This document shows positions 3,392-31,338 of a stretch of 31,338 bases of DNA, piece after piece. Where the stretch lies: the IMG/VR virus record IMGVR_UViG_3300020043_002028, positions 1 to 31,338 of that record; one strand, given 5' to 3'. This DNA is from a virus (Duplodnaviria; Caudoviricetes). Within the stretch, counting starts at the first letter, position 1. Each line of letters starts with the position of its first letter. The notes under the pieces are model-generated. The model ran no database searches and had not been told where the DNA came from. It saw nothing but the letters and a program-made list of their open reading frames with translations. A program made the translations under genes and the position numbers.

Positions 3392-3888
3392 ATCTGTAGT
3401 GAATTTCTAAGTGTTGTTTTAGCTTTCTTAATAGTTCTGTAAAGATAGTTCAAAGGTATGCCTGTTTCTTTAGCTAACTCCTGATAGCTGAAGTCATCCA
3501 ATGCGTAAAGAAAGAATAGCTCACGCTCAAAGTAGGGCAGCCTGCTGATGAAGATATCTAACTGCTCATTCTCTAAGCGCATGCCTACACTTTTGTTCAC
3601 ATCATCTATGATATCATCTTTCAAGTCATTGCGTATCTTTTCAAATCTTAACCTGGTATAATTGAATGAGCTGTTACTGCATCGTGCAGATAAGCGGATA
3701 GCGTTGCTCACATAGTTATTAAGCTTTCCTCTATCATGGATATCTTGAAGCTTATCTTTATCTGATTCTAATATCTTAAGCAGCGTATCGTGGAGTAGCT
3801 CATCAGCTAAATCTTGGCGAGTAACAGTAGCTGCCACTCTGCGCCACTCATTGTAGCACTTATTTATTTCTGAGTGATAGGTACTCAT
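3388..3888 (-). CDS. ECF-like sigma-70 family factor (probable late sigma)
   Basis: Region-2-like LADELLHDTLLKIL and region-4 HTH LPYFERELFFLYALDDFSYQELAKETGIPLNYLYRTIKKAK. Confidence 0.85.
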   Translation of the reverse strand: MSTYHSEINKCYNEWRRVAATVTRQDLADELLHDTLLKILESDKDKLQDIHDRGKLNNYVSNAIRLSARCSNSSFNYTRLRFEKIRNDLKDDIIDDVNKSVGMRLENEQLDIFISRLPYFERELFFLYALDDFSYQELAKETGIPLNYLYRTIKKAKTTLRNSLQI

Positions 3889-4213
3889 CTATTACTTGTT
3901 TGGCTTCATCAAAGCTTTTACATGTTACTGCATGATAGCCATTGTTAATAAGCTTTGCCTGCCAGTCTTTCTGAGATTGACTCATAACACCCTTAGCTGT
4001 TTTCATTTCTATTGCTAATCCAAAGAATGGACCTTTAGCATTATAGATAAAGATGTCAGGGAAGCCTTTCACGTACCCTGTTTTTTTCATCTTAACAGCC
4101 TGCTTCATAGATGTACGAACACCTCCAGCTGAAGCGCAATAAAGTAAACGCGGATACTGAGCGTTAATGTAGTTAATAACAGCCTCTTGTATTAAAGCTT
4201 CCTCGTTCTTCAT
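3860..4213 (-). CDS. VRR-NUC domain nuclease (putative resolvase)
   Basis: E..IQ..V, KGFPDIF, LAIEMKT..G.MS.SQKDW: the PD-(D/E)xK VRR-NUC signature. Confidence 0.9.
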   Translation of the reverse strand: MKNEEALIQEAVINYINAQYPRLLYCASAGGVRTSMKQAVKMKKTGYVKGFPDIFIYNAKGPFFGLAIEMKTAKGVMSQSQKDWQAKLINNGYHAVTCKSFDEAKQVIDEYLSLRNK

Positions 4214-4217
4214 GATT

Positions 4218-4250
4218 CAAAATTAGACTATTAACTTAATCTAAATCAAC
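4218..4250 (-). promoter_or_regulatory. Bacteroidota promoter for the VRR-NUC/sigma operon (likely leaderless)
   Basis: TAATTTTG at 4218-4225, 4 nt before the ATG at 4213; GTTG 21 nt upstream (4247-4250). Confidence 0.55.
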
Positions 4251-4252
4251 AT

Positions 4253-4276
4253 CTTATTCACATACTTATTCACATA
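4253..4276 (+). promoter_or_regulatory. Two tandem DnaA boxes (TTATTCACA) within a 12-bp tandem repeat
   Basis: CTTATTCACATA x2 (4253-4264, 4265-4276); boxes at 4254-4262 and 4266-4274 match TTWTNCACA. Confidence 0.7.
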
Positions 4277-4289
4277 GGATTAAGCGCCA

Positions 4290-4297
4290 TATCTTTG
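4290..4297 (+). promoter_or_regulatory. Plus-strand -7 promoter element TATCTTTG
   Basis: TAnnTTTG in an intergenic region, divergent from the 4218 promoter; the -33 position overlaps a DnaA box. Confidence 0.55.
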
Positions 4298-4301
4298 GAC
4301 T

Positions 4302-4372
4302 AAGAATTTGCTTTTGGTTTAGCAATGATTATTGATTACTGAGATAGGCTTGCAAACGTGCAGGCCTATTTT
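4302..4372 (+). ncRNA. Putative trans-acting sRNA antisense to early-gene start regions
   Basis: Promoter element upstream and terminator at the 3' end. The body 4306-4338 matches plus-strand sequence spanning the start codons at 9060, 9512, 11768, 12200 and 12310. Confidence 0.6.
4344..4372 (+). terminator. Intrinsic terminator, plus strand
   Basis: ATAGGCTTGCA-AACG-TGCAGGCCTAT then TTTAGTTT. The one non-Watson-Crick pair is U.G on the plus strand but A/C on the minus strand. Confidence 0.7.
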
Positions 4373-4375
4373 AGT

Positions 4376-5695
4376 TTAGATAAACGCATACTTAGTATAG
4401 TTGCGATTAAGCTCAAAGTAGGCTCGCATCATTATAGCATCTGCTATATCGGGAGAGATTCCACCGGTGCGCTGGCTGATAGTATCTTTTGATGTTACTC
4501 TGAGCTTACCCTCCTTATCAGGATCCACTCGCCTCACTAATTCTAATTCTTTAACTATATCTTCCTGCCATTTAATTGGTAGAGTTATCTCATTCTTATC
4601 TATGAGCTCGCCTAATCTAAAGTAGCAGTCTGCTTTTAGATTCATGTACTGAGTACCTCGCACAGCTTTACTACCGTTCATAAACTCCCTACAGCGTAAG
4701 CTATCTACAAGGCCACCGCCTACCCCATCAGCATCTGCGAGCACGTTGCTTAGTCTAATGCCGTGTTGGTTCATTAAGCGCTGAATTTCTGCCTTAACTT
4801 CATCCTGTCTCTTTTGGCGCAGTATTACAATATCAATACAGCTTAAGCCTTTCCACACACAAAGCACTGTTCTATCTTTACCCAAGCGAGCTATATCGGC
4901 AGTGATATATCCCTCACCTACATTCATTGGCTCACGAAAGCATCGAATCAGCTCATCATACATGTAAAGTCTATCACTGCTATTATCGAATTCCCAATCT
5001 CCCTCAAGCAAGCGCTTTCTATCTGCTTCCGGTAAGCGTGTTAAGCTTGTTACGTAGCTATCAGGCAAGTGTATATTATCTCCAGGTAGAGCTTGCACGA
5101 ATGCTCTGTGAGCAGGCAGATTCTGATTCTTGTATGGTAAGTAGAATTGATTATAAATCCATCCCTTCGAAGGATTGCAAGTAAGTAATATCTTAGGCTT
5201 TAGCCCGAACTCGTTAAGCTTGTATCGAATACGCGAGCTAACAATAGAATAAGCTTTCTCAGTTATCTCAGTAGCTTCATCTATAAATACATCAGTGACT
5301 TCTAACCCTCCTAAGTCAGTCATCATAGGATCAGATGGATAGAGAAATAAATCGGCTAAGATAATTTCACTGCCATTGCTGAACTTAATGATGTGGCTCT
5401 GCTGATTATAGATGAAATCTTCGCCTGCTTTTAAGCCTATCTCATTAGCCACTTGAAAGAATGTAGCCATTGTAGTCTTTTTAAGCGTATCTAACTTGGC
5501 TCGGCCTATTAATGAGCGTGTACCTGGATATTTTAGCCTGCGTAATATCTGCCACATGCAGCCGAGCATAGTCTTTCCACCGCCTGCTGCTCCTCCATAC
5601 AAGATAGTTTCAACGTCTGAATCTACTGATAAGAATTTAAGTGCCTCGCTTTGCCTTGTTAGAGGCTTGAAATTGTATTCTATTTGTCGCGCCAT
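4376..5695 (-). CDS. terL: Terminase large subunit
   Basis: Walker A GGAAGGGKT, Walker B VFIDEA, coupling motif TCNP, and RNase H-like nuclease motifs ADIARLGKD, DADGVG and SPDIADA. Confidence 0.95.
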   Translation of the reverse strand: MARQIEYNFKPLTRQSEALKFLSVDSDVETILYGGAAGGGKTMLGCMWQILRRLKYPGTRSLIGRAKLDTLKKTTMATFFQVANEIGLKAGEDFIYNQQSHIIKFSNGSEIILADLFLYPSDPMMTDLGGLEVTDVFIDEATEITEKAYSIVSSRIRYKLNEFGLKPKILLTCNPSKGWIYNQFYLPYKNQNLPAHRAFVQALPGDNIHLPDSYVTSLTRLPEADRKRLLEGDWEFDNSSDRLYMYDELIRCFREPMNVGEGYITADIARLGKDRTVLCVWKGLSCIDIVILRQKRQDEVKAEIQRLMNQHGIRLSNVLADADGVGGGLVDSLRCREFMNGSKAVRGTQYMNLKADCYFRLGELIDKNEITLPIKWQEDIVKELELVRRVDPDKEGKLRVTSKDTISQRTGGISPDIADAIMMRAYFELNRNYTKYAFI

Positions 5696-6883: not shown

Positions 6884-6897
6884 ACGCTATAATTAAT

Positions 6898-6923
6898 AAA
6901 AAAGCCCAGCGTTATGCTGAGCT
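6898..6923 (-). terminator. Intrinsic terminator ending the early operon
   Basis: Minus strand AGCTCAGCA-TAA-CGCTGGGC followed by a T6 run, downstream of the MTase. Confidence 0.75.
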
Positions 6924-6949
6924 CTCTTATTAGATAGTGGAAGAAATGC

Positions 6950-7861
6950 TTAAAATAATTTCAGTTGTGCCTTTTCTCGTGCATCCATTTCAGCAATTAC
7001 CTTGAAAATTTCATAAGCTACTTGCGGAACGATAGCATTTCCATATCCTTTTATAGATTCTGCTCTCCATTTAGAAAAGGTAATTCCGTCCAATTCGGTG
7101 GGAAGCCCATCATCTCCGCCACAAATCGGGGATTGAGTTGGGAATCTTTCGAATGATAGTTCTTCTCTCCTTCTTCCATTTGACAATAAATTGATTTCAT
7201 TGATACTCTTCTCGTTGGAAAATTGTCCAATGAGTTCGGAGGATACGCTCCCTTTGAGTCGCTCACTGTTGGTGTTGGTAACAATCCGCTCTTCGCTAAA
7301 TCGTGAAGGCCCGCTGAATATGTGTTGTTTTTCTGCTTGCCTATTACTATCTGCGCTCCGCCTTGAATTACTGTCGGAGTAGGCAATAAACCAAACTCTA
7401 TCTCTTCGGTGTGGCGCACCGACGGCACAAGCTGGCAAAAGTATCGGTTGTACGGTGTACCCTTGAGCTTCCAAGTCAGTGCACACTTCCTCGAAGACCA
7501 CTCCCCCATTCCAATTAGTAAGTCCACGAACGTTTTCGCCCACAACGTAGGTTGGTTTAACTTCTGAAATGACTCTGAGCATATGCGGCCAGAGGTGTCG
7601 CTCGTCCTCTTTCCCAAGTCGCTTACCTGCGCTTGAATAAGGTTGGCATGGGAATCCACCGGTAAGGATGTCAATTGTTCCTCGGTGAATAGTGAAATCT
7701 GTTTTTGTGATGTCTTCATAACTTATAGAATTAGGCCAATAATGATTTAAAACTTTGCGTGGAAATGGCATCCATTCGCAGTGAAAGATGTTATCCCATC
7801 CCATCCATTCGGCAGCTAAATCGAATCCACCGATTCCGCTGAATAATGAGCCATGATTCAC
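6950..7861 (-). CDS. DNA cytosine-5 methyltransferase, alpha polypeptide (lacks motif IX)
   Basis: Motif I LFSGIGG, IV GFPCQPYS, VI ENV, VIII HRRDRVW, X YGNAIVPQVA; GTG start. Confidence 0.93.
   Translation of the reverse strand: MNHGSLFSGIGGFDLAAEWMGWDNIFHCEWMPFPRKVLNHYWPNSISYEDITKTDFTIHRGTIDILTGGFPCQPYSSAGKRLGKEDERHLWPHMLRVISEVKPTYVVGENVRGLTNWNGGVVFEEVCTDLEAQGYTVQPILLPACAVGAPHRRDRVWFIAYSDSNSRRSADSNRQAEKQHIFSGPSRFSEERIVTNTNSERLKGSVSSELIGQFSNEKSINEINLLSNGRRREELSFERFPTQSPICGGDDGLPTELDGITFSKWRAESIKGYGNAIVPQVAYEIFKVIAEMDAREKAQLKLF
7051..7719 (-). CDS. Nested alternative-frame MTase beta polypeptide (motif IX donor)
   Basis: 222-codon ORF entirely inside the MTase gene, with two LLPTPT repeats and C-terminal LNPRFVAEMMGFPPNWTE (motif IX-like). 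Confidence 0.8.
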   Translation of the reverse strand: MKTSQKQISLFTEEQLTSLPVDSHANLIQAQVSDLGKRTSDTSGRICSESFQKLNQPTLWAKTFVDLLIGMGEWSSRKCALTWKLKGTPYNRYFCQLVPSVRHTEEIEFGLLPTPTVIQGGAQIVIGKQKNNTYSAGLHDLAKSGLLPTPTVSDSKGAYPPNSLDNFPTRRVSMKSIYCQMEEGEKNYHSKDSQLNPRFVAEMMGFPPNWTELPFLNGEQNL

Positions 7862-8052
7862 AGCTTCTCCTCCCGAATCTCTATTCTAAACAAGTCTTTA
7901 AGAATCTCTATCTCATGATCCTTAAAGTTGCTTATGCCCTGCTCTCTGAGGCAGTAATTACTTTGCTCTATGCCTAACTTGTATGCCAGGTAGTCTTGCT
8001 TATATCCGTAGAATAGTCTATAGCATTTAATTGATTTATGGAATGGTATCAT
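7858..8052 (-). CDS. XRE/Cro-type HTH protein
   Basis: IKCYRLFYGYKQDYLAYKLGIEQSNYCLREQG fits the XRE HTH pattern. Confidence 0.8.
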   Translation of the reverse strand: MIPFHKSIKCYRLFYGYKQDYLAYKLGIEQSNYCLREQGISNFKDHEIEILKDLFRIEIREEKL

Positions 8053-8795
8053 TTTTCTCCTTTGTTAAGTTGTTTAATAATGTCAATGTAAACTATTCGG
8101 CTCAGCTCTATCTTTTGCAAGCCATCGAATTCAGCCTGTGCGCTTTCACCTAAGATAACTTTGTTACTTGCCTTGAATTTAGCCTCTACCTTTTGCTTGG
8201 CTATATCTTCAAATCTTGCCCATACCTCAGGTTCCCACATAGATTTCTTATAGATGCCTTGGCGAAATAAGCGCTGGCAGTTGTACGGTGCAGATATCTC
8301 TACCCACGTTTGCTTACCATTCTTATACCTTTCTGCATCAGCATGCAAGTCATCTATAGGATTAGTAGGAGTGTATTCACGAGGCTCAGATTCAGGCAAG
8401 ATAAGCGCTTTATTTAGCTCTCGCCATACTTTACTCTTATATTCCTCATAACGCTTAAGCACATCGGCCATAAAGCTTATGCTGAATAGATTAAAAGCCT
8501 CTACTCTTTCGAAGTCTTTGCCTATAGCATTGTACAGGAAGGCATTCTGCCAATCCTTAATTGTTGTACTTCGATACGTAGTTTGTGTAAGTTGCTGAAG
8601 CAGAGTTACTTCTATATCTGAAGGTAAAGCTTTAATAGAATTGATTACAGCAGCCTGCGCTATAAGCTCTCTAAATTCCTGCTCAGATAAAGAATGTAGC
8701 TTAGGTGAGCTAATACACTCAGCTATAGCTCTCTCTTCAGCGCTTAGTGAACGACTGAAGCTCTGATGTGCTAATGCGCCCAATCTTTTGCTCAT
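8049..8795 (-). CDS. Hypothetical protein, possibly replication-associated
   Basis: 248-aa ORF directly after the initiator-C-terminus-like gene; role inferred from position only. Confidence 0.7.
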   Translation of the reverse strand: MSKRLGALAHQSFSRSLSAEERAIAECISSPKLHSLSEQEFRELIAQAAVINSIKALPSDIEVTLLQQLTQTTYRSTTIKDWQNAFLYNAIGKDFERVEAFNLFSISFMADVLKRYEEYKSKVWRELNKALILPESEPREYTPTNPIDDLHADAERYKNGKQTWVEISAPYNCQRLFRQGIYKKSMWEPEVWARFEDIAKQKVEAKFKASNKVILGESAQAEFDGLQKIELSRIVYIDIIKQLNKGEK

Positions 8796-9060
8796 CTTCT
8801 TTAGATTTTTGTTGGTTAGTATCTCTTGCTTTCCATTGATCTGCAGCAGCTCGCCAGCTCTTCATGGAATTTCTACCTACCTTCCATCCATTACTCTCGT
8901 AGAATGTGTAAAAGCGCTTAGCTAATACTACATCTTGAGTGTATTCGATGATGTCGGCAAGTGATGGAGGAGTGAATTTAGTAGAGGCTGCACGCTTAGA
9001 TTCAAGCGCTCGTACCCTCTCTTCAAGCGCTTCAATGCGCTTTAATAAGATTGTTGTCAT
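8737..9060 (-). CDS. Protein resembling the C-terminal domain of phage replisome organizers
   Basis: FTPPSL...RFYTFYESNGWKVGRNSMKSWRAA motif preceded only by a short coiled coil. Confidence 0.7.
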   Translation of the reverse strand: MTTILLKRIEALEERVRALESKRAASTKFTPPSLADIIEYTQDVVLAKRFYTFYESNGWKVGRNSMKSWRAAADQWKARDTNQQKSKEDEQKIGRISTSELQSFTKR

Positions 9061-9074
9061 TTGGTTTAAGATTA

Positions 9075-9512
9075 TTAATTATTGAGCAAATATAGAAGAA
9101 ATCTCTTCCACCAAGGTAGTGCAACTGCTTTTTTTACTCTTGGCTTAGGATCTCGCTGAGGCATGTTCACCAATCCAAGCATATCAGTATCTGCTTTAGG
9201 TAACTCGTTGTAACCGGTTACTAATTTACGCTTTGCAATTTTGGTCTGATGGTATTTCTTTTGAAAATCCATTATTCTATAATAATCTTTTCGCTCCAAT
9301 TTAGGTTTAACTACTACTACAGTTCTGCCATTTAATCTGACAAGAATTCTTGCATCTACTAAATATTTACCCATTGAGCCCTTTAAGCCTACGGCATGTA
9401 AAGCATAGCTTAATTTCTGCCCTTCCTGCACTAAGTCAATTACTTTTTGTAATCTCTGCATAGTTACAGGCTCACTCTTTCTTTTGTCGAATTGAATTGT
9501 GGTTTGTTTCAT
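9075..9512 (-). CDS. Hypothetical basic protein
   Basis: 145-aa ORF with an A-rich start region. Confidence 0.75.
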   Translation of the reverse strand: MKQTTIQFDKRKSEPVTMQRLQKVIDLVQEGQKLSYALHAVGLKGSMGKYLVDARILVRLNGRTVVVVKPKLERKDYYRIMDFQKKYHQTKIAKRKLVTGYNELPKADTDMLGLVNMPQRDPKPRVKKAVALPWWKRFLLYLLNN

Positions 9513-9529
9513 GATTATTGATTTTAAGA

Positions 9530-10030
9530 TTATTGAGTTAATTTATAAAACACTTTATTGAGATGCTCGTTATTGAGATGGCCAAGAATCTCCTCTACCT
9601 TCTCTCTGTAGACTCTATCAGTCTGAATCATATTATCTACGTGGCTGATTGCATACAGAATAGTAGAGTGATCTCTAACGAATATAGCACCGATGTTATG
9701 CAGGCTCATGCTGGTACCGTGTCGAATAACCCACATGCATATCTGCCTGATATCGTTAATCTCACGCACTCGGCTTCTGCCTTTTAAGTTAGGCCAATCT
9801 GTGTAGCCCTTATCTAAAAGAATCTCAAGCATTCGATTAGCCTTAGCCTCATTCATGCTCTCGGCTATTCCATTAATTGACTTCCATTTGAGCTCAGGGA
9901 TGTTACTGTTGTTTACAGCTCTTACCAGGTTATCTATTCTTCTACGTGCATTCTGCTGCATTTCAGAAGGAATAAGCAGCAGGATATCTGCTATCTTTCT
10001 ATCTATTACTTTACTCATCTTGACCTCCAT
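9530..10030 (-). CDS. DnaA domain IV (DnaA-box-binding HTH) protein, no AAA+ domain
   Basis: GRSRVREINDIRQICMWVIRHGTSMSLHNIGAIFVRDHSTILYAISHV matches the DnaA C-terminal signature. Confidence 0.88.
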   Translation of the reverse strand: MEVKMSKVIDRKIADILLLIPSEMQQNARRRIDNLVRAVNNSNIPELKWKSINGIAESMNEAKANRMLEILLDKGYTDWPNLKGRSRVREINDIRQICMWVIRHGTSMSLHNIGAIFVRDHSTILYAISHVDNMIQTDRVYREKVEEILGHLNNEHLNKVFYKLTQ

Positions 10031-10235
10031 ATGTTTCGTTGTAGTATTGTTCCCCTGAAAAATTTAACTTATACTTATCACCTTGTTCATAAGCATCAAT
10101 AATCTGCTCCTCCTCCATTTGCTTGGCTTGTTGGAATTTAAGTTCCACTTCTTCCCACAACTCAGGAGTTATGTCGTGGAATATTATATTTAGTTCAAGC
10201 CCTAACCATTCAACCGCAGTTTGTTTCTTTTCCAT
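10011..10235 (-). CDS. Small hypothetical protein (KQTAVEWL type), paralog of 711-947
   Basis: 74 aa, shares motifs with 711-947. Confidence 0.8.
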   Translation of the reverse strand: MEKKQTAVEWLGLELNIIFHDITPELWEEVELKFQQAKQMEEEQIIDAYEQGDKYKLNFSGEQYYNETYGGQDE

Positions 10236-10568: not shown

Positions 10569-10808
10569 TTATTTAGTTTTAGAGTCATTCATTAATTCCA
10601 GTATGTATGGTATCTCTTCCTCAGTGATATTAGCAAGCTTGCCTATGTGCGTTACCTTCATAGTGAATGGCTGCTTAATAAATTTCTGAGCTGTGGGGTA
10701 ACTTACCTCAAGCACTTCAGCGAACTGAGCCACAGTCACAAAGTGACTGCGAACCCAGCTATGAAATGGAGTAAGCTTAGAATGGCATTTCATCATCTGC
10801 TGCTTCAT
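10569..10808 (-). CDS. Cro-like HTH protein
   Basis: TVAQFAEVLEVSYPTAQKFIKQP HTH pattern. Confidence 0.7.
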   Translation of the reverse strand: MKQQMMKCHSKLTPFHSWVRSHFVTVAQFAEVLEVSYPTAQKFIKQPFTMKVTHIGKLANITEEEIPYILELMNDSKTK

Positions 10809-11391: not shown

Positions 11392-11545
11392 GGGGATTAT
11401 TCATAAAATGTGCTCTCCAATTCTCATAGGCTGTAGTGCCCTTAGCATATTGAAGATGCTGTACTATTTCATTGTAGCTGAGTGACTCTCCCATCACTGA
11501 ACTCTGCACGCAGATGAATCTGCTTTTAGCGCGATCAGATAACAT
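11375..11545 (-). CDS. Small hypothetical protein (MLSDRAKSRF...)
   Basis: ORF track gives 11375-11620; the start at 11545 avoids a long overlap with the upstream gene. Confidence 0.6.
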   Translation of the reverse strand: MLSDRAKSRFICVQSSVMGESLSYNEIVQHLQYAKGTTAYENWRAHFMNNPHELQP

Positions 11546-11768
11546 AGCGGTCAGACATAAAGTAATCGTGCACATTGTTTTCATCTTCGCTTTCGAACTG
11601 GTATAAGAAAGTACCATCATCAGGGAATACCTCCCCGTGCTTTTTAGCTGTTGAGAAATCAGTTAGAGAGTAACTGTGAGCAGATGTGTAAAGCTGCCAT
11701 TTGCATCCTTCGGCATCCCACCGAGATACAATTACCCTTCCGGTAATGTTGTTGTTTGGTTTATTCAT
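11535..11768 (-). CDS. Early hypothetical protein
   Basis: 77-aa ORF in the early operon. Confidence 0.75.
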   Translation of the reverse strand: MNKPNNNITGRVIVSRWDAEGCKWQLYTSAHSYSLTDFSTAKKHGEVFPDDGTFLYQFESEDENNVHDYFMSDRYVI

Positions 11769-11790
11769 GATTATTAATTAAGTTGCTAAT

Positions 11791-12021: not shown

Positions 12022-12200
12022 AACTCTACCTCCTTACTTACTAAGACTGTAGTAGTCTCTCTGAAGTTAATAGCCAGCGTGTACTCAGCAAAAGCTTCAT
12101 CGTAGGTATCAAATACTTTAGTGTAGCTGCCATTAATTTTTAAGTAATAGCGAGTGCCATCATACTTGGCTACTTCAACAATTTCAAAAAGTGTTTTCAT
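12018..12200 (-). CDS. Early hypothetical protein
   Basis: 60-aa ORF with ATGA overlaps. Confidence 0.75.
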   Translation of the reverse strand: MKTLFEIVEVAKYDGTRYYLKINGSYTKVFDTYDEAFAEYTLAINFRETTTVLVSKEVEL

Positions 12201-12310
12201 TTGCTTATGTGATTAGGTTGTAATTCTAATTTCTGAGTATCTGCATCGAATGATCCTCCGATGAGTAAGCCTGCTATTAGCATGGCGAGAAAGAGTAGTG
12301 CTTTTTTCAT
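12197..12310 (-). CDS. 37-aa membrane or secreted peptide, first gene of the early operon
   Basis: Manual translation MKKALLFLAMLIAGLLIGGSFDADTQKLELQPNHISK*; ATGA overlap with the next gene. Confidence 0.7.
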   Translation of the reverse strand: MKKALLFLAMLIAGLLIGGSFDADTQKLELQPNHISK

Positions 12311-12332
12311 TTGCTTATTGATTTAATTTTAG

Positions 12333-12363
12333 CAAATGTACTACTATATTTTAGAAAAGCAAA
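12333..12363 (-). promoter_or_regulatory. Consensus Bacteroidota primary-sigma promoter (major early promoter)
   Basis: TTTG (12363-12360) - 19 nt - TACATTTG (12340-12333); near-DnaA box TTATTAACA at 12389-12397. Confidence 0.85.
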
Positions 12364-12410
12364 AGAAACCTTACTAATTATAGCAAAGTTATTAACAAAG
12401 ATTTGTTAGT

Positions 12411-29868: not shown

Positions 29869-30139
29869 TTAAGTAAGCTTTTGTTGTAGGCTGTTAGCGT
29901 AATCCATAGCGTAGGTTAAATGGGTGAATATTGTTGAAGCTCTCGTCTTAGTTATAGCATCGAACTTAGTTACATCTCTCTCTGCCATCTCTTCGATAAC
30001 ATGCCACCATTGATAAACACTTGCTAATGTTTCACCTCTTCGGCTAACTGACTGATCTCCCTCTTCAGCCTCTCCAGCTCCGCTTCTAAATATTCGGGTG
30101 TACTGTTCACTAAATCGTTTCTGAGTGTCGAAAAAAAAA
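29869..30139 (-). CDS. -1 frameshift extension of tail assembly chaperone, allele B (complete)
   Basis: T9 slippery run at 30131-30139; -1 frame FDTQKRF...HLTYAMDYANSLQQKLT* ends at TAA 29869-29871. Confidence 0.88.
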
Positions 30140-30608
30140 GCAGCGCAGCATTCACGTTGGCTAAGTTTAGCTGCCTCATTTGAGGAGCGTACTTAAGATG
30201 CACATCACTATCATACTCCTCTATCTTGTACTGCAAATTAATCTCAGCTGTAACTGGTCTATAGAGAATGCACATTAGCTCAGGCAGTTGGTGAGGGAAG
30301 TTCTTACTTAATTCAGATAGATCTAACCATTCGCCAAAGGTCATAGATTTAAGGTTAGGATGAAAGCCGAACTTAATACCATCTATCTCTATGAACTGCT
30401 TAAATACCTTTTCATCATTCTTAAGCCCTTCAGCATAGGCTGTAACTATCTTTTCAATAGTTGCCATGTCTATCTTTCTAATATCGTCTCGCTTCAATCC
30501 TGTGATGGCTTGAATCTGTGAAACAGTATCTTCACCTGCTGCTACAAAGTCTACGTATGTCCCGAGCGTTTGATCACTGTACTTAGTGCTTATTATCTTG
30601 TCGCTCAT
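30024..30608 (-). CDS. Tail assembly chaperone, allele B
   Basis: 194 aa, near-identical to 125-709. Confidence 0.75.
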   Translation of the reverse strand: MSDKIISTKYSDQTLGTYVDFVAAGEDTVSQIQAITGLKRDDIRKIDMATIEKIVTAYAEGLKNDEKVFKQFIEIDGIKFGFHPNLKSMTFGEWLDLSELSKNFPHQLPELMCILYRPVTAEINLQYKIEEYDSDVHLKYAPQMRQLNLANVNAALLFFSTLRNDLVNSTPEYLEAELERLKREISQLAEEVKH

Positions 30609-30611
30609 AGC

Positions 30612-31019
30612 TTAAATGTTTGTACCATCAATAGTTATGTTAATGCTCTTTATCTCAGTGCTCAGCTCTTGCCTTTCAATATATCCTCTCTGCTTGCCTT
30701 GTGTCTTTAAGTAGAAGATAACAGCTGATGTGTTAGGAGCATCCTTAATAGTTACTACCTCACCATCATGGGTTAATGCCTGGCGCTCTGCTCCCTCCAT
30801 TAGCTTCTTAAGCTGCGACTCTGCGAAGTCAAGTGCTACATTCTTAAGCGAAGCTACAGCGGCTGCATACTCTGCGTCATCTTTGAGCCACTCATAGTGA
30901 ATAGTTCTGCTTAAGCCCATCTTCTCACATGCCTCAGTTACATTGCCAAGCGAAGCCGTAAGTGCCTGAATCATAGCTTCTTTTTTGATTGTCAATTTTT
31001 GTAAAGGCTGCTCACTCAT
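30612..31019 (-). CDS. Putative terminase small subunit, allele B
   Basis: Identical in protein to allele A from HYEW onward; divergent N-terminal HTH. Confidence 0.75.
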   Translation of the reverse strand: MSEQPLQKLTIKKEAMIQALTASLGNVTEACEKMGLSRTIHYEWLKDDAEYAAAVASLKNVALDFAESQLKKLMEGAERQALTHDGEVVTIKDAPNTSAVIFYLKTQGKQRGYIERQELSTEIKSINITIDGTNI

Positions 31020-31338
31020 GCTAACTTATTCTTAAAGTGTGTTATTAACTGCTCCATCTTAGAATCATAGTATTTAGCAAATGTACTAAAACCTTCGTTA
31101 TCAGCTTCATAAACTCTAAACATTATACCTCTTAGTCTCTGAGATGGCTTCTTTAGTGTATCTTCTAACTCTGATTTCAAGCTTTCCACAGCATCTAACT
31201 CCTCACGTCTGAAGCTCTCATCTTTAAAAGCTAAATAACCGAACTGATTAGCTGTGCCAAATAGCTCAGCCGCTTGTGCCGGAGTAAGCTCATTAGTACC
31301 AAAGGTAAGCTTAAGAGTCTTATCTTTTCTTGTGCCTA
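31016..31338 (-). CDS. Partial copy of the 117-aa hypothetical protein (5' end outside window)
   Basis: Aligns to 1358-1680. Confidence 0.85.
   Translation of the reverse strand, partial: GTRKDKTLKLTFGTNELTPAQAAELFGTANQFGYLAFKDESFRREELDAVESLKSELEDTLKKPSQRLRGIMFRVYEADNEGFSTFAKYYDSKMEQLITHFKNKLA

Follow-up and report, generated by a model that had tools for sequence, protein, structure and literature searches.

A conserved intergenic unit in a genus-like clade of tailed phages is predicted to encode a small RNA that pairs with early-gene start regions

Genome context and anatomy of the intergenic unit

The stretch of DNA analysed here (the window) is an entire virus record of 31,338 bases that encodes terminase, portal, capsid and lysis proteins (PHROG and Pfam matches), with all genes on the minus strand. 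Promoters across the window match the Bacteroidota -7 consensus TANNTTTG (PMC6847099), and among cultured phages, Flavobacterium phage 11b has the closest terminase (47%); from these two observations, we infer that the host is a member of the Bacteroidota. No integrase or partition family was detected among the 54 ORFs scanned against PHROG and Pfam, no relative of the terminase large subunit gene (terL) was found in the 185,579 prokaryote genomes searched, cultured phages gave no DNA match to positions 3860-4500, and a fold search with the 248-aa gene returned no match. The window ends, 1-1680 and 29900-31338, repeat each other at 88-90% identity, which is probably due either to two strain alleles assembled into a circular genome of about 29.9 kb or to a chimeric overlap. 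A minus-strand terminator at 6890-6930 closes the early/replication block ahead of the genes leading to terL, and a C5 DNA methyltransferase gene (6950-7861, minus strand), present in just 2 of 30 long relatives, marks a variable slot. Two small proteins encoded on the minus strand (7858-8052 and 10569-10808) resemble HTH regulators, the first by eye and the second by a weak Pfam HTH match, so protein repressors are possible as well.

The non-coding unit (4254-4374, plus strand) is wholly intergenic (4214-4375), and overlap is possible only with untranslated read-through RNA. The features of the locus are the following, with counts referring to the 73 units compared below.

3860-4213, minus strand: VRR-NUC nuclease gene, divergent from the sRNA promoter (Pfam VRR_NUC, E 1.7e-08)
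4218-4225, minus strand: divergent -7 promoter element TAATTTTG before the VRR-NUC gene, identical in 73/73 units
4254-4262, plus strand: DnaA-type box 1, TTATTCACA in 38/73 and TTGTTAACA in 35/73 units
4266-4274, plus strand: DnaA-type box 2, TTATTCACA in 59/73 and TTATGCACA in 14/73 units
4290-4297, plus strand: -7 promoter element of the predicted sRNA, TATATTTG in 40/73, TATCTTTG in 32/73 and TATCTTTA in 1/73 units
4302-4374, plus strand: predicted sRNA of about 70 nt, fold -28.9 kcal/mol, z -5.7
4308-4325, plus strand: hairpin 1, whose loop UUUGGUUU (4313-4320) is seed 1, the complement of AAACCAAA
4326-4337, plus strand: seed 2, single-stranded UGAUUAUUGAUU, the complement of AAUCAAUAAUCA
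4340-4372, plus strand: intrinsic terminator hairpin and U-run, the U-run being absent on the minus strand
4376-5695, minus strand: terL, converging on the sRNA terminator (PHROG and Pfam terminase matches)

A Sigma70_r4 gene is, like the VRR-NUC gene, divergent from the unit (Pfam), and the divergent -7 element would, judging by its sequence, act as a promoter. DnaA-type box 2 lies 14-15 nt upstream of the sRNA -7 element, which in the window is TATCTTTG, and thus sits at about the position of a -33 element; transcription is predicted to start 4-5 nt downstream of the -7 element (per PMC6847099). The predicted RNA folds into two hairpins, of which the first exposes the loop UUUGGUUU and the second is the terminator, and the 4302-4378 segment is more stable on the plus strand than on the minus strand (-28.9 versus -17.4 kcal/mol). 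The seed 1 loop has a mean unpaired probability of 0.99, and seed 2 one of 0.75. No Rfam family matched the window at E<=1, and no ORF of at least 40 aa lies inside the unit.

The unit had been predicted earlier from the letters of the window, as the sole plus-strand unit with a promoter at 4290-4297, a short body and a strand-specific terminator. This outline held: of the seven plus-strand TAnnTTTG sites, only the one at 4290 has a strong hairpin and a U-run after it, and no U-run is present on the minus strand. The outline lacked hairpin 1, the pair of DnaA boxes and the divergent promoter.

Predicted pairing with early-gene start regions

Accessibility-aware pairing of the predicted RNA with 51 gene starts set three of these apart from the other 48 by more than 6 kcal/mol: the starts at 11768 (-19.3 kcal/mol), 9512 (-18.6) and 9060 (-15.5), the next being at -9.2. 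At all three, the AUG or the bases just ahead of it lie within the duplex, and the two seeds pair with the targets in colinear order. The predicted target sites, 4.7-7.5 kb away from the unit and on the opposite strand, and one weak candidate are as follows.

11755-11780, minus strand: target 1, start region of a 77-aa gene (11535-11768), -19.3 kcal/mol, rank 1 of 51
9503-9523, minus strand: target 2, start region of a 145-aa gene (9075-9512), -18.6 kcal/mol, the site of the putatively compensatory indel
9060-9083, minus strand: target 3, leader of a 107-aa gene (8737-9060), -15.5 kcal/mol, with its own -7 element at 9094-9087
12308-12323, minus strand: weak candidate target, leader of the first early gene (37 aa, 12197-12310), -7.4 kcal/mol

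The matches quoted in the original prediction were located as described: 22/26 identity between 4313-4338 and 11755-11780, with one of the differences a G·U pair, 13/13 identity between 4325-4337 and 9511-9523, and 10 plus 12 pairs flanking a 4-nt bulge in the 9060 duplex. ATTTGCTT was found at both 12199 and 12309 as well. Five targets had been proposed on this basis, of which 11768, 9512 and 9060 stand, whereas 12310 (-7.4 kcal/mol) and 12200 (-8.6), the starts of the first two early genes, are at the background level.

Pairing also exceeded shuffled controls. The summed energy of the top three starts, again 11768, 9060 and 9512, was reached by none of 500 dinucleotide shuffles and by 2 of 146 GC-matched plus-strand 40-mers; with intramolecular structure counted, none of 75 shuffles matched it. 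The antisense of a real gene start, however, scores equally in 11 of 51 cases. Therefore, energy alone cannot tell an sRNA from a decayed gene start, and the case depends on the comparison with relatives.

The 77-aa product of the target 1 gene received no name from protein atlas and Pfam searches. The target 2 product, for which the protein atlas search gave no name, is predicted to be a winged-helix protein, on the strength of a modelled winged-helix arrangement, with only weak wHTH matches (best E 0.14). This protein (9075-9512, minus strand) is highly variable among relatives except for a fixed C-terminal LPWWKRxLLYL helix, a sequence suggestive of a membrane anchor. The target 3 gene resembles a replication initiator: its product shares 35% identity (E 1e-6) with the C-terminal portion of a phage protein annotated for replication initiation.

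The targets had been assigned to one early operon, but the core targets lie mostly behind -7-like elements of their own. Such an element is found 31-34 nt upstream of the target 3 start in 50/51 copies, precedes the first early gene in 25/27 copies (at 12340 in the window) and, in a variant form, precedes target 1 in 33/35. With the leaders directly behind -7 elements, the tags fill the short leaders of probably separate transcripts.

Among 31 long loci, which are related genomes and not independent, all 65 coding-strand matches to the seed 2 complement fall in start windows, which make up 12% of the bases, and 106 of 132 occurrences of the loop complement are located at starts. Tags recur on the same four genes across these loci; the leader of the first early gene has a seed-2-like tag in 26 of the 31. 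By comparison, the seed 2 tag occurs 9 times in 19.9 Mb (five Bacteroidota genomes that are not known hosts) and twice in the 31 kb of the window.

Conservation and structure of the unit in related phages

From 135 terL loci, 80 with 88-100% identity were kept, 7 of which end within 158 bases of terL. The unit was detected in all 73 loci with enough downstream sequence, 72 of which carry the unit proper and one (L010) a variant. Across the 73 units, there is almost no variation in the boxes, the two -7 elements, the two seeds and the U-run, whereas the spacers vary (0.58-0.82 identity); the seed columns doubled as search anchors, and the 73/73 count is independent of these anchors. Among 99 distinct units, the seed 1 loop is identical in 98, and seed 2 is as in the window in 62 and has one extra U in 37.

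The RNA structure is conserved along with the sequence. Across 51 distinct aligned units, 99.7% of the cells are paired, 6 of 16 pairs show two-sided changes, and pairs of the hairpin 1 stem swap. The covariation score was not attained in any of 500 shuffles, a control that is inflated by the relatedness of the sequences, and it collapsed when the alignment was slid. In the terminator, 99.8% of the cells are paired and three pairs show two-sided changes; one stem position is U·G in 46/52 aligned units, and stability is greater on the plus strand in 52/52. Thus, the architecture of a free-standing gene is apparent at the sequence level, with a -7 element and a terminator in 73/73 units and covariation in the terminator.

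The unit of L010 (11473-11557, minus strand) has a different and longer 5' arm and the loop UAUGGUUU, and the target leaders of this genome retain AAACCAAA; the target 2 gene pattern was not found there. In 54 of 72 relatives, an insert of about 65-340 bp separates the terL stop from the terminator; it is absent at position 4375 of the window. These inserts consist of shuffled short modules without a long ORF (carriers include L001, L004, L008, L013, L016, L030, L044, L057, L070, L079, L080 and others), and their lengths step by about 10 bp, with 37 of the 54 distances ending in 8, 9 or 0.

A covariance model run against 80 loci with terminases 37-55% identical to that of the window gave no convincing match (best E 0.024). 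Among the matches listed by the homologue search, there were only proteins of at least 96% identity, and the nearest cluster representative was at 51%. On the basis of these searches, the unit is known only from one genus-like clade. A two-seed pattern had 119 viral matches, 85 of them the unit of this clade and 34 other, and a pattern combining box, promoter and loop had 56 metagenome matches, of which 20 were the unit. In a distant phage group (L387 and L390), a -7-like element, a U-rich stretch and a weak hairpin lie about 310 bases behind terL on the opposite strand, possibly an analogous unit.

Covariation between seed 2 and the target 2 leader

The extra U in seed 2 is accompanied by a complementary extra A in the target 2 leader, 4-6 kb away. 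In the first set of genomes, the extra A was present in 8/8 extra-U genomes versus 1/27 others; after addition of loci, the counts were 10/11 versus 1/27 and, with the near-duplicates L304 and L022 dropped, 9/10 versus 1/26 (r2 0.74). This r2 is above the best of 705 variable columns in the two genes flanking the target 2 leader (maximum 0.58), and the long leader occurs in both deep clades of each flanking gene. With the four target starts pooled, the long tag is present in 11/11 extra-U genomes versus 2/35 others. Pairing within the same genome was compared with permutations as well: for target 2, none of 5,000 permutations did as well, for target 1 the p-value was 0.0016, and for target 3 own-genome matching was not above permutation (p 0.52). 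Of 28 departures from the tag in the target 3 leaders, 18 or 19 are non-wobble changes and 9 are wobble changes, and a pattern of wobble-only substitutions was not seen in the targets overall.

Shared ancestry limits how these associations can be read. The extra-U genomes are partly one lineage and cluster on the terL tree, with three changes; 12 of 1,436 variable columns elsewhere also correlate with the extra-U trait at r2>=0.7; and the indel offers only 2-4 independent pairs (sign test p 0.25-1), so significance is out of reach. A looser first test, which accepted long tags anywhere upstream, was not significant (7/10 versus 19/37, p 0.48), and the indel signal appears only with the test confined to target leaders, a choice made after the alignments were viewed. 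L061 and L333 at target 2, and L010 with its changed loop and leaders that keep AAACCAAA, are discordant with pairing. On balance, the indels in seed 2 and the target 2 leader make a good but not conclusive case for compensation.

DnaA-type boxes and a candidate regulator

9530-10030, minus strand: phage protein with a DnaA domain-IV helix-turn-helix (Pfam Bac_DnaA_C, E 8.5e-15), candidate regulator acting on the boxes
12389-12397, plus strand: DnaA-type box overlapping an upstream early -7 element (12391-12384, minus strand)

Tandem DnaA-type boxes precede the unit in 73/73 cases, and the tandem pattern was also found in 64 unrelated viral stretches. The phage itself encodes a protein with the corresponding DNA-binding domain, the gene for which is present in 30/30 long relatives; compared with solved DnaA, the recognition-helix motif is kept (RDHST against RDHTT). 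Another DnaA-type box is located at 10084, 54 bases before this gene, and the one at 12389 is visible, with variants, in the 24 relatives examined. A further DnaA-type box, TTTTCCACA, lies 36 bases upstream of another -7 element (2681-2645, minus strand). We infer control of the sRNA through the DnaA boxes, by either the phage DnaA-domain protein or host DnaA, of which the phage protein is the more likely.

Alternative explanations

Several other explanations of the unit have to be weighed. Because the unit converges on the terL stop and no minus-strand U-run follows the hairpin, overlap with terL transcripts is likely, and the RNA could act in cis only, pairing perfectly with terL read-through RNA and uncoupling terL from the downstream genes, with the likeness to gene starts incidental. 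This is unlikely: cis pairing needs no fixed sequence, but the seeds are fixed, match distant starts and covary with one of them, and the inserts of up to about 340 bp separate terL from the unit in relatives. An RNA aimed mainly at host mRNAs, with phage leaders that merely resemble generic Bacteroidota leaders, has a precedent in the phage sRNAs PreS and DicF, which act on host genes (PMC12197685), and the loop complement does occur before an ATG 14-43 times per Bacteroidota genome. We regard this as very unlikely, given that in 3 of 5 genomes the loop motif does not exceed its reversed control in frequency, that the seed 2 tag has only 1-3 copies per genome in five Bacteroidota genomes, and that the two-part tag is found in some 170 stretches among 185,579 genomes. 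There is an equally slim chance that pairing activates or stabilises the targets, or that the RNA guides the neighbouring nuclease or sigma-region-4 protein to promoter-proximal sites. In favour, the tags fill leaders right behind -7 elements, and the VRR-NUC and Sigma70_r4 genes are divergent from the unit; against both versions, duplexes over the AUG or just before it have the repressing geometry of GibS (PMC7366714), and the terminator is the sole conserved candidate for a protein-binding scaffold.

The tandem boxes in all 73 units, a pattern shared with the 64 unrelated viral stretches, and the encoded DnaA domain-IV protein would also suit a replication origin, with the RNA a primer or a by-product of DnaA-box-driven transcription. 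That account is more doubtful still, since it leaves the seed match to starts and the covariation unexplained, the transcript would stop at a strong terminator after 70 nt, and no DnaA-trio run was seen beside the boxes (by eye); the boxes could, however, additionally serve an origin. Least credible is that the segment is a minus-strand feature, either the decayed start of a gene, which the original prediction had itself named as a refuting outcome, or an RNA decoy, and that the hairpin is unrelated. The minus strand is leader-like, the antisense of real starts scores as well in 11/51 cases, and the tag is followed by TTG in 30 and ATG in 28 of the 99 distinct units. In the other 41, however, no start codon follows, the 28 ATG frames all stop within 7 codons, no conserved minus-strand reading frame was detected among the 99 units, and spacers of 5, 6, 7, 9 and 10 nt disrupt any frame, those on the plus strand included. 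The G·U pairs and the U-run are confined to the plus strand, and decay would not preserve fixed seeds and covarying stems. The lack of a start codon in these 41, the short ATG frames and plus-strand stability thus argue for a plus-strand RNA and against a decayed gene start, a reading that can be considered largely refuted.

Proposed mechanism and role

The trans-acting, multi-target antisense sRNA envisaged by the original prediction is supported by the conserved promoter, seeds and terminator, the covariation, the plus-strand bias, the target specificity and the apparently compensatory indel. Positions 4302-4374 are a well-supported candidate for a real sRNA gene with three strong self-targets. 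We consider it likely, from comparison of the sequences, that this conserved promoter-two-seed-terminator gene yields an RNA of about 70 nt that pairs in trans with at least three early leaders or starts and blocks their translation.

In the proposed mechanism, host RNA polymerase would transcribe the unit from the -7 element, with the timing of synthesis set by a protein that binds the DnaA boxes, most probably the DnaA-domain protein of the phage itself. The loop UUUGGUUU would contact AAACCAAA, hairpin 1 would open, and UGAUUAUUGAUU would zip onto AAUCAAUAAUCA. The resulting duplex would hide the AUG and the upstream adenines that Bacteroidota ribosomes use instead of a Shine-Dalgarno sequence; adenines upstream of the AUG promote initiation in Flavobacterium (PMC6847099), and the Bacteroidota sRNA GibS represses by pairing over the start codon (PMC7366714).

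The most likely role, modestly favoured over a carrier state or exclusion, is the damping or shut-off of early and replication genes as infection proceeds; shut-off or damping in lytic growth is preferred because signs of integration are absent. A carrier state or action on co-infecting relatives may rely on identical chemistry and, with the seeds nearly fixed across the genus, the RNA could act on co-infecting relatives too. More tentatively, at somewhat short of an even chance, a whole phage genus may time its early-to-late switch by RNA and not by a repressor protein, with the DnaA-domain protein turning on an sRNA that silences separately promoted early transcripts, including the replication module, via a co-evolving modular leader tag; the unit would then represent one family within a class of anti-leader RNAs, as yet undescribed, in Bacteroidota phages. 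If true, a trans-acting RNA that represses a group of tagged early genes of its own phage would coordinate a phage programme in a different manner, and one that suits hosts in which ribosomes disregard Shine-Dalgarno sequences. Ready-made material for a compensation experiment exists in the natural one-base seed/leader pairs.

Comparison with known systems

Coordinated repression of early phage genes is familiar from T4, where the RegA protein represses the translation of several early mRNAs at AU-rich initiation regions; recognition is by a protein in the case of RegA, whereas RNA pairing is proposed here. The c4 antisense RNA of phages P1 and P7 is a small RNA with separate pairing segments that keeps the phage's own genes off. 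The lambda OOP and aQ and the P22 Sar RNAs are each antisense to one gene (PMC12197685). Like the unit, they are short, have their own promoter and lower the phage's own regulatory genes by pairing; unlike them, the unit is not opposite a regulated gene or its ribosome-binding site and would pair imperfectly, in trans, with a tag common to several leaders. The phage sRNAs considered here from that 2025 review target a single phage gene or genes of the host (PMC12197685). In the mostly open-access literature searched, no published case was found of a phage RNA directed at a start tag that several early genes of the same phage have in common.

Among the sRNAs of Bacteroidota, the comparison is with GibS of Bacteroides thetaiotaomicron, a trans-encoded, chromosomal RNA of about 145 nt whose metabolic-gene targets have been demonstrated by experiment (PMC7366714). 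Both RNAs are intergenic, with their own promoter and terminator and two AU/GU-rich single-stranded seed regions, and pair, in the phage case by prediction, across the start codons of several mRNAs in a phylum that does not use Shine-Dalgarno sequences. The defining traits of such an sRNA are found in the phage unit: its own promoter and terminator, no conserved frame, conserved single-stranded seeds and distant imperfect complementarity. In contrast to GibS, the phage unit is about 70 nt long and has the phage's own early genes as targets predicted from sequence; one of its seeds lies in a hairpin loop, and its promoter has DnaA boxes. Sequence relationship to GibS was compared through Rfam only, with no match.

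Similar in apparent purpose is the P4 CI RNA, likewise a small phage RNA with separate segments that silences the phage's own genes, in P4 the replication genes (PMC4825925). The CI RNA is processed from the transcript that it controls and causes premature termination at flanking sites (PMC4825925), and the c4 RNA is classified as RF01695 (PMC2864571). The unit is unlike both in lying on the strand opposite to its targets, in having its own promoter and terminator and in covering start codons; of the features that define the P4 CI/c4 type, a match to RF01695 (none at E<=1) and processing from a target-bearing transcript are lacking, while separate segments that pair with separate target segments are shared, so the unit would work alike without being a member. 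The unit belongs to no Rfam family; by analogy, it appears to function like a trans-encoded sRNA, with a purpose like that of the P4 CI RNA (PMC4825925).
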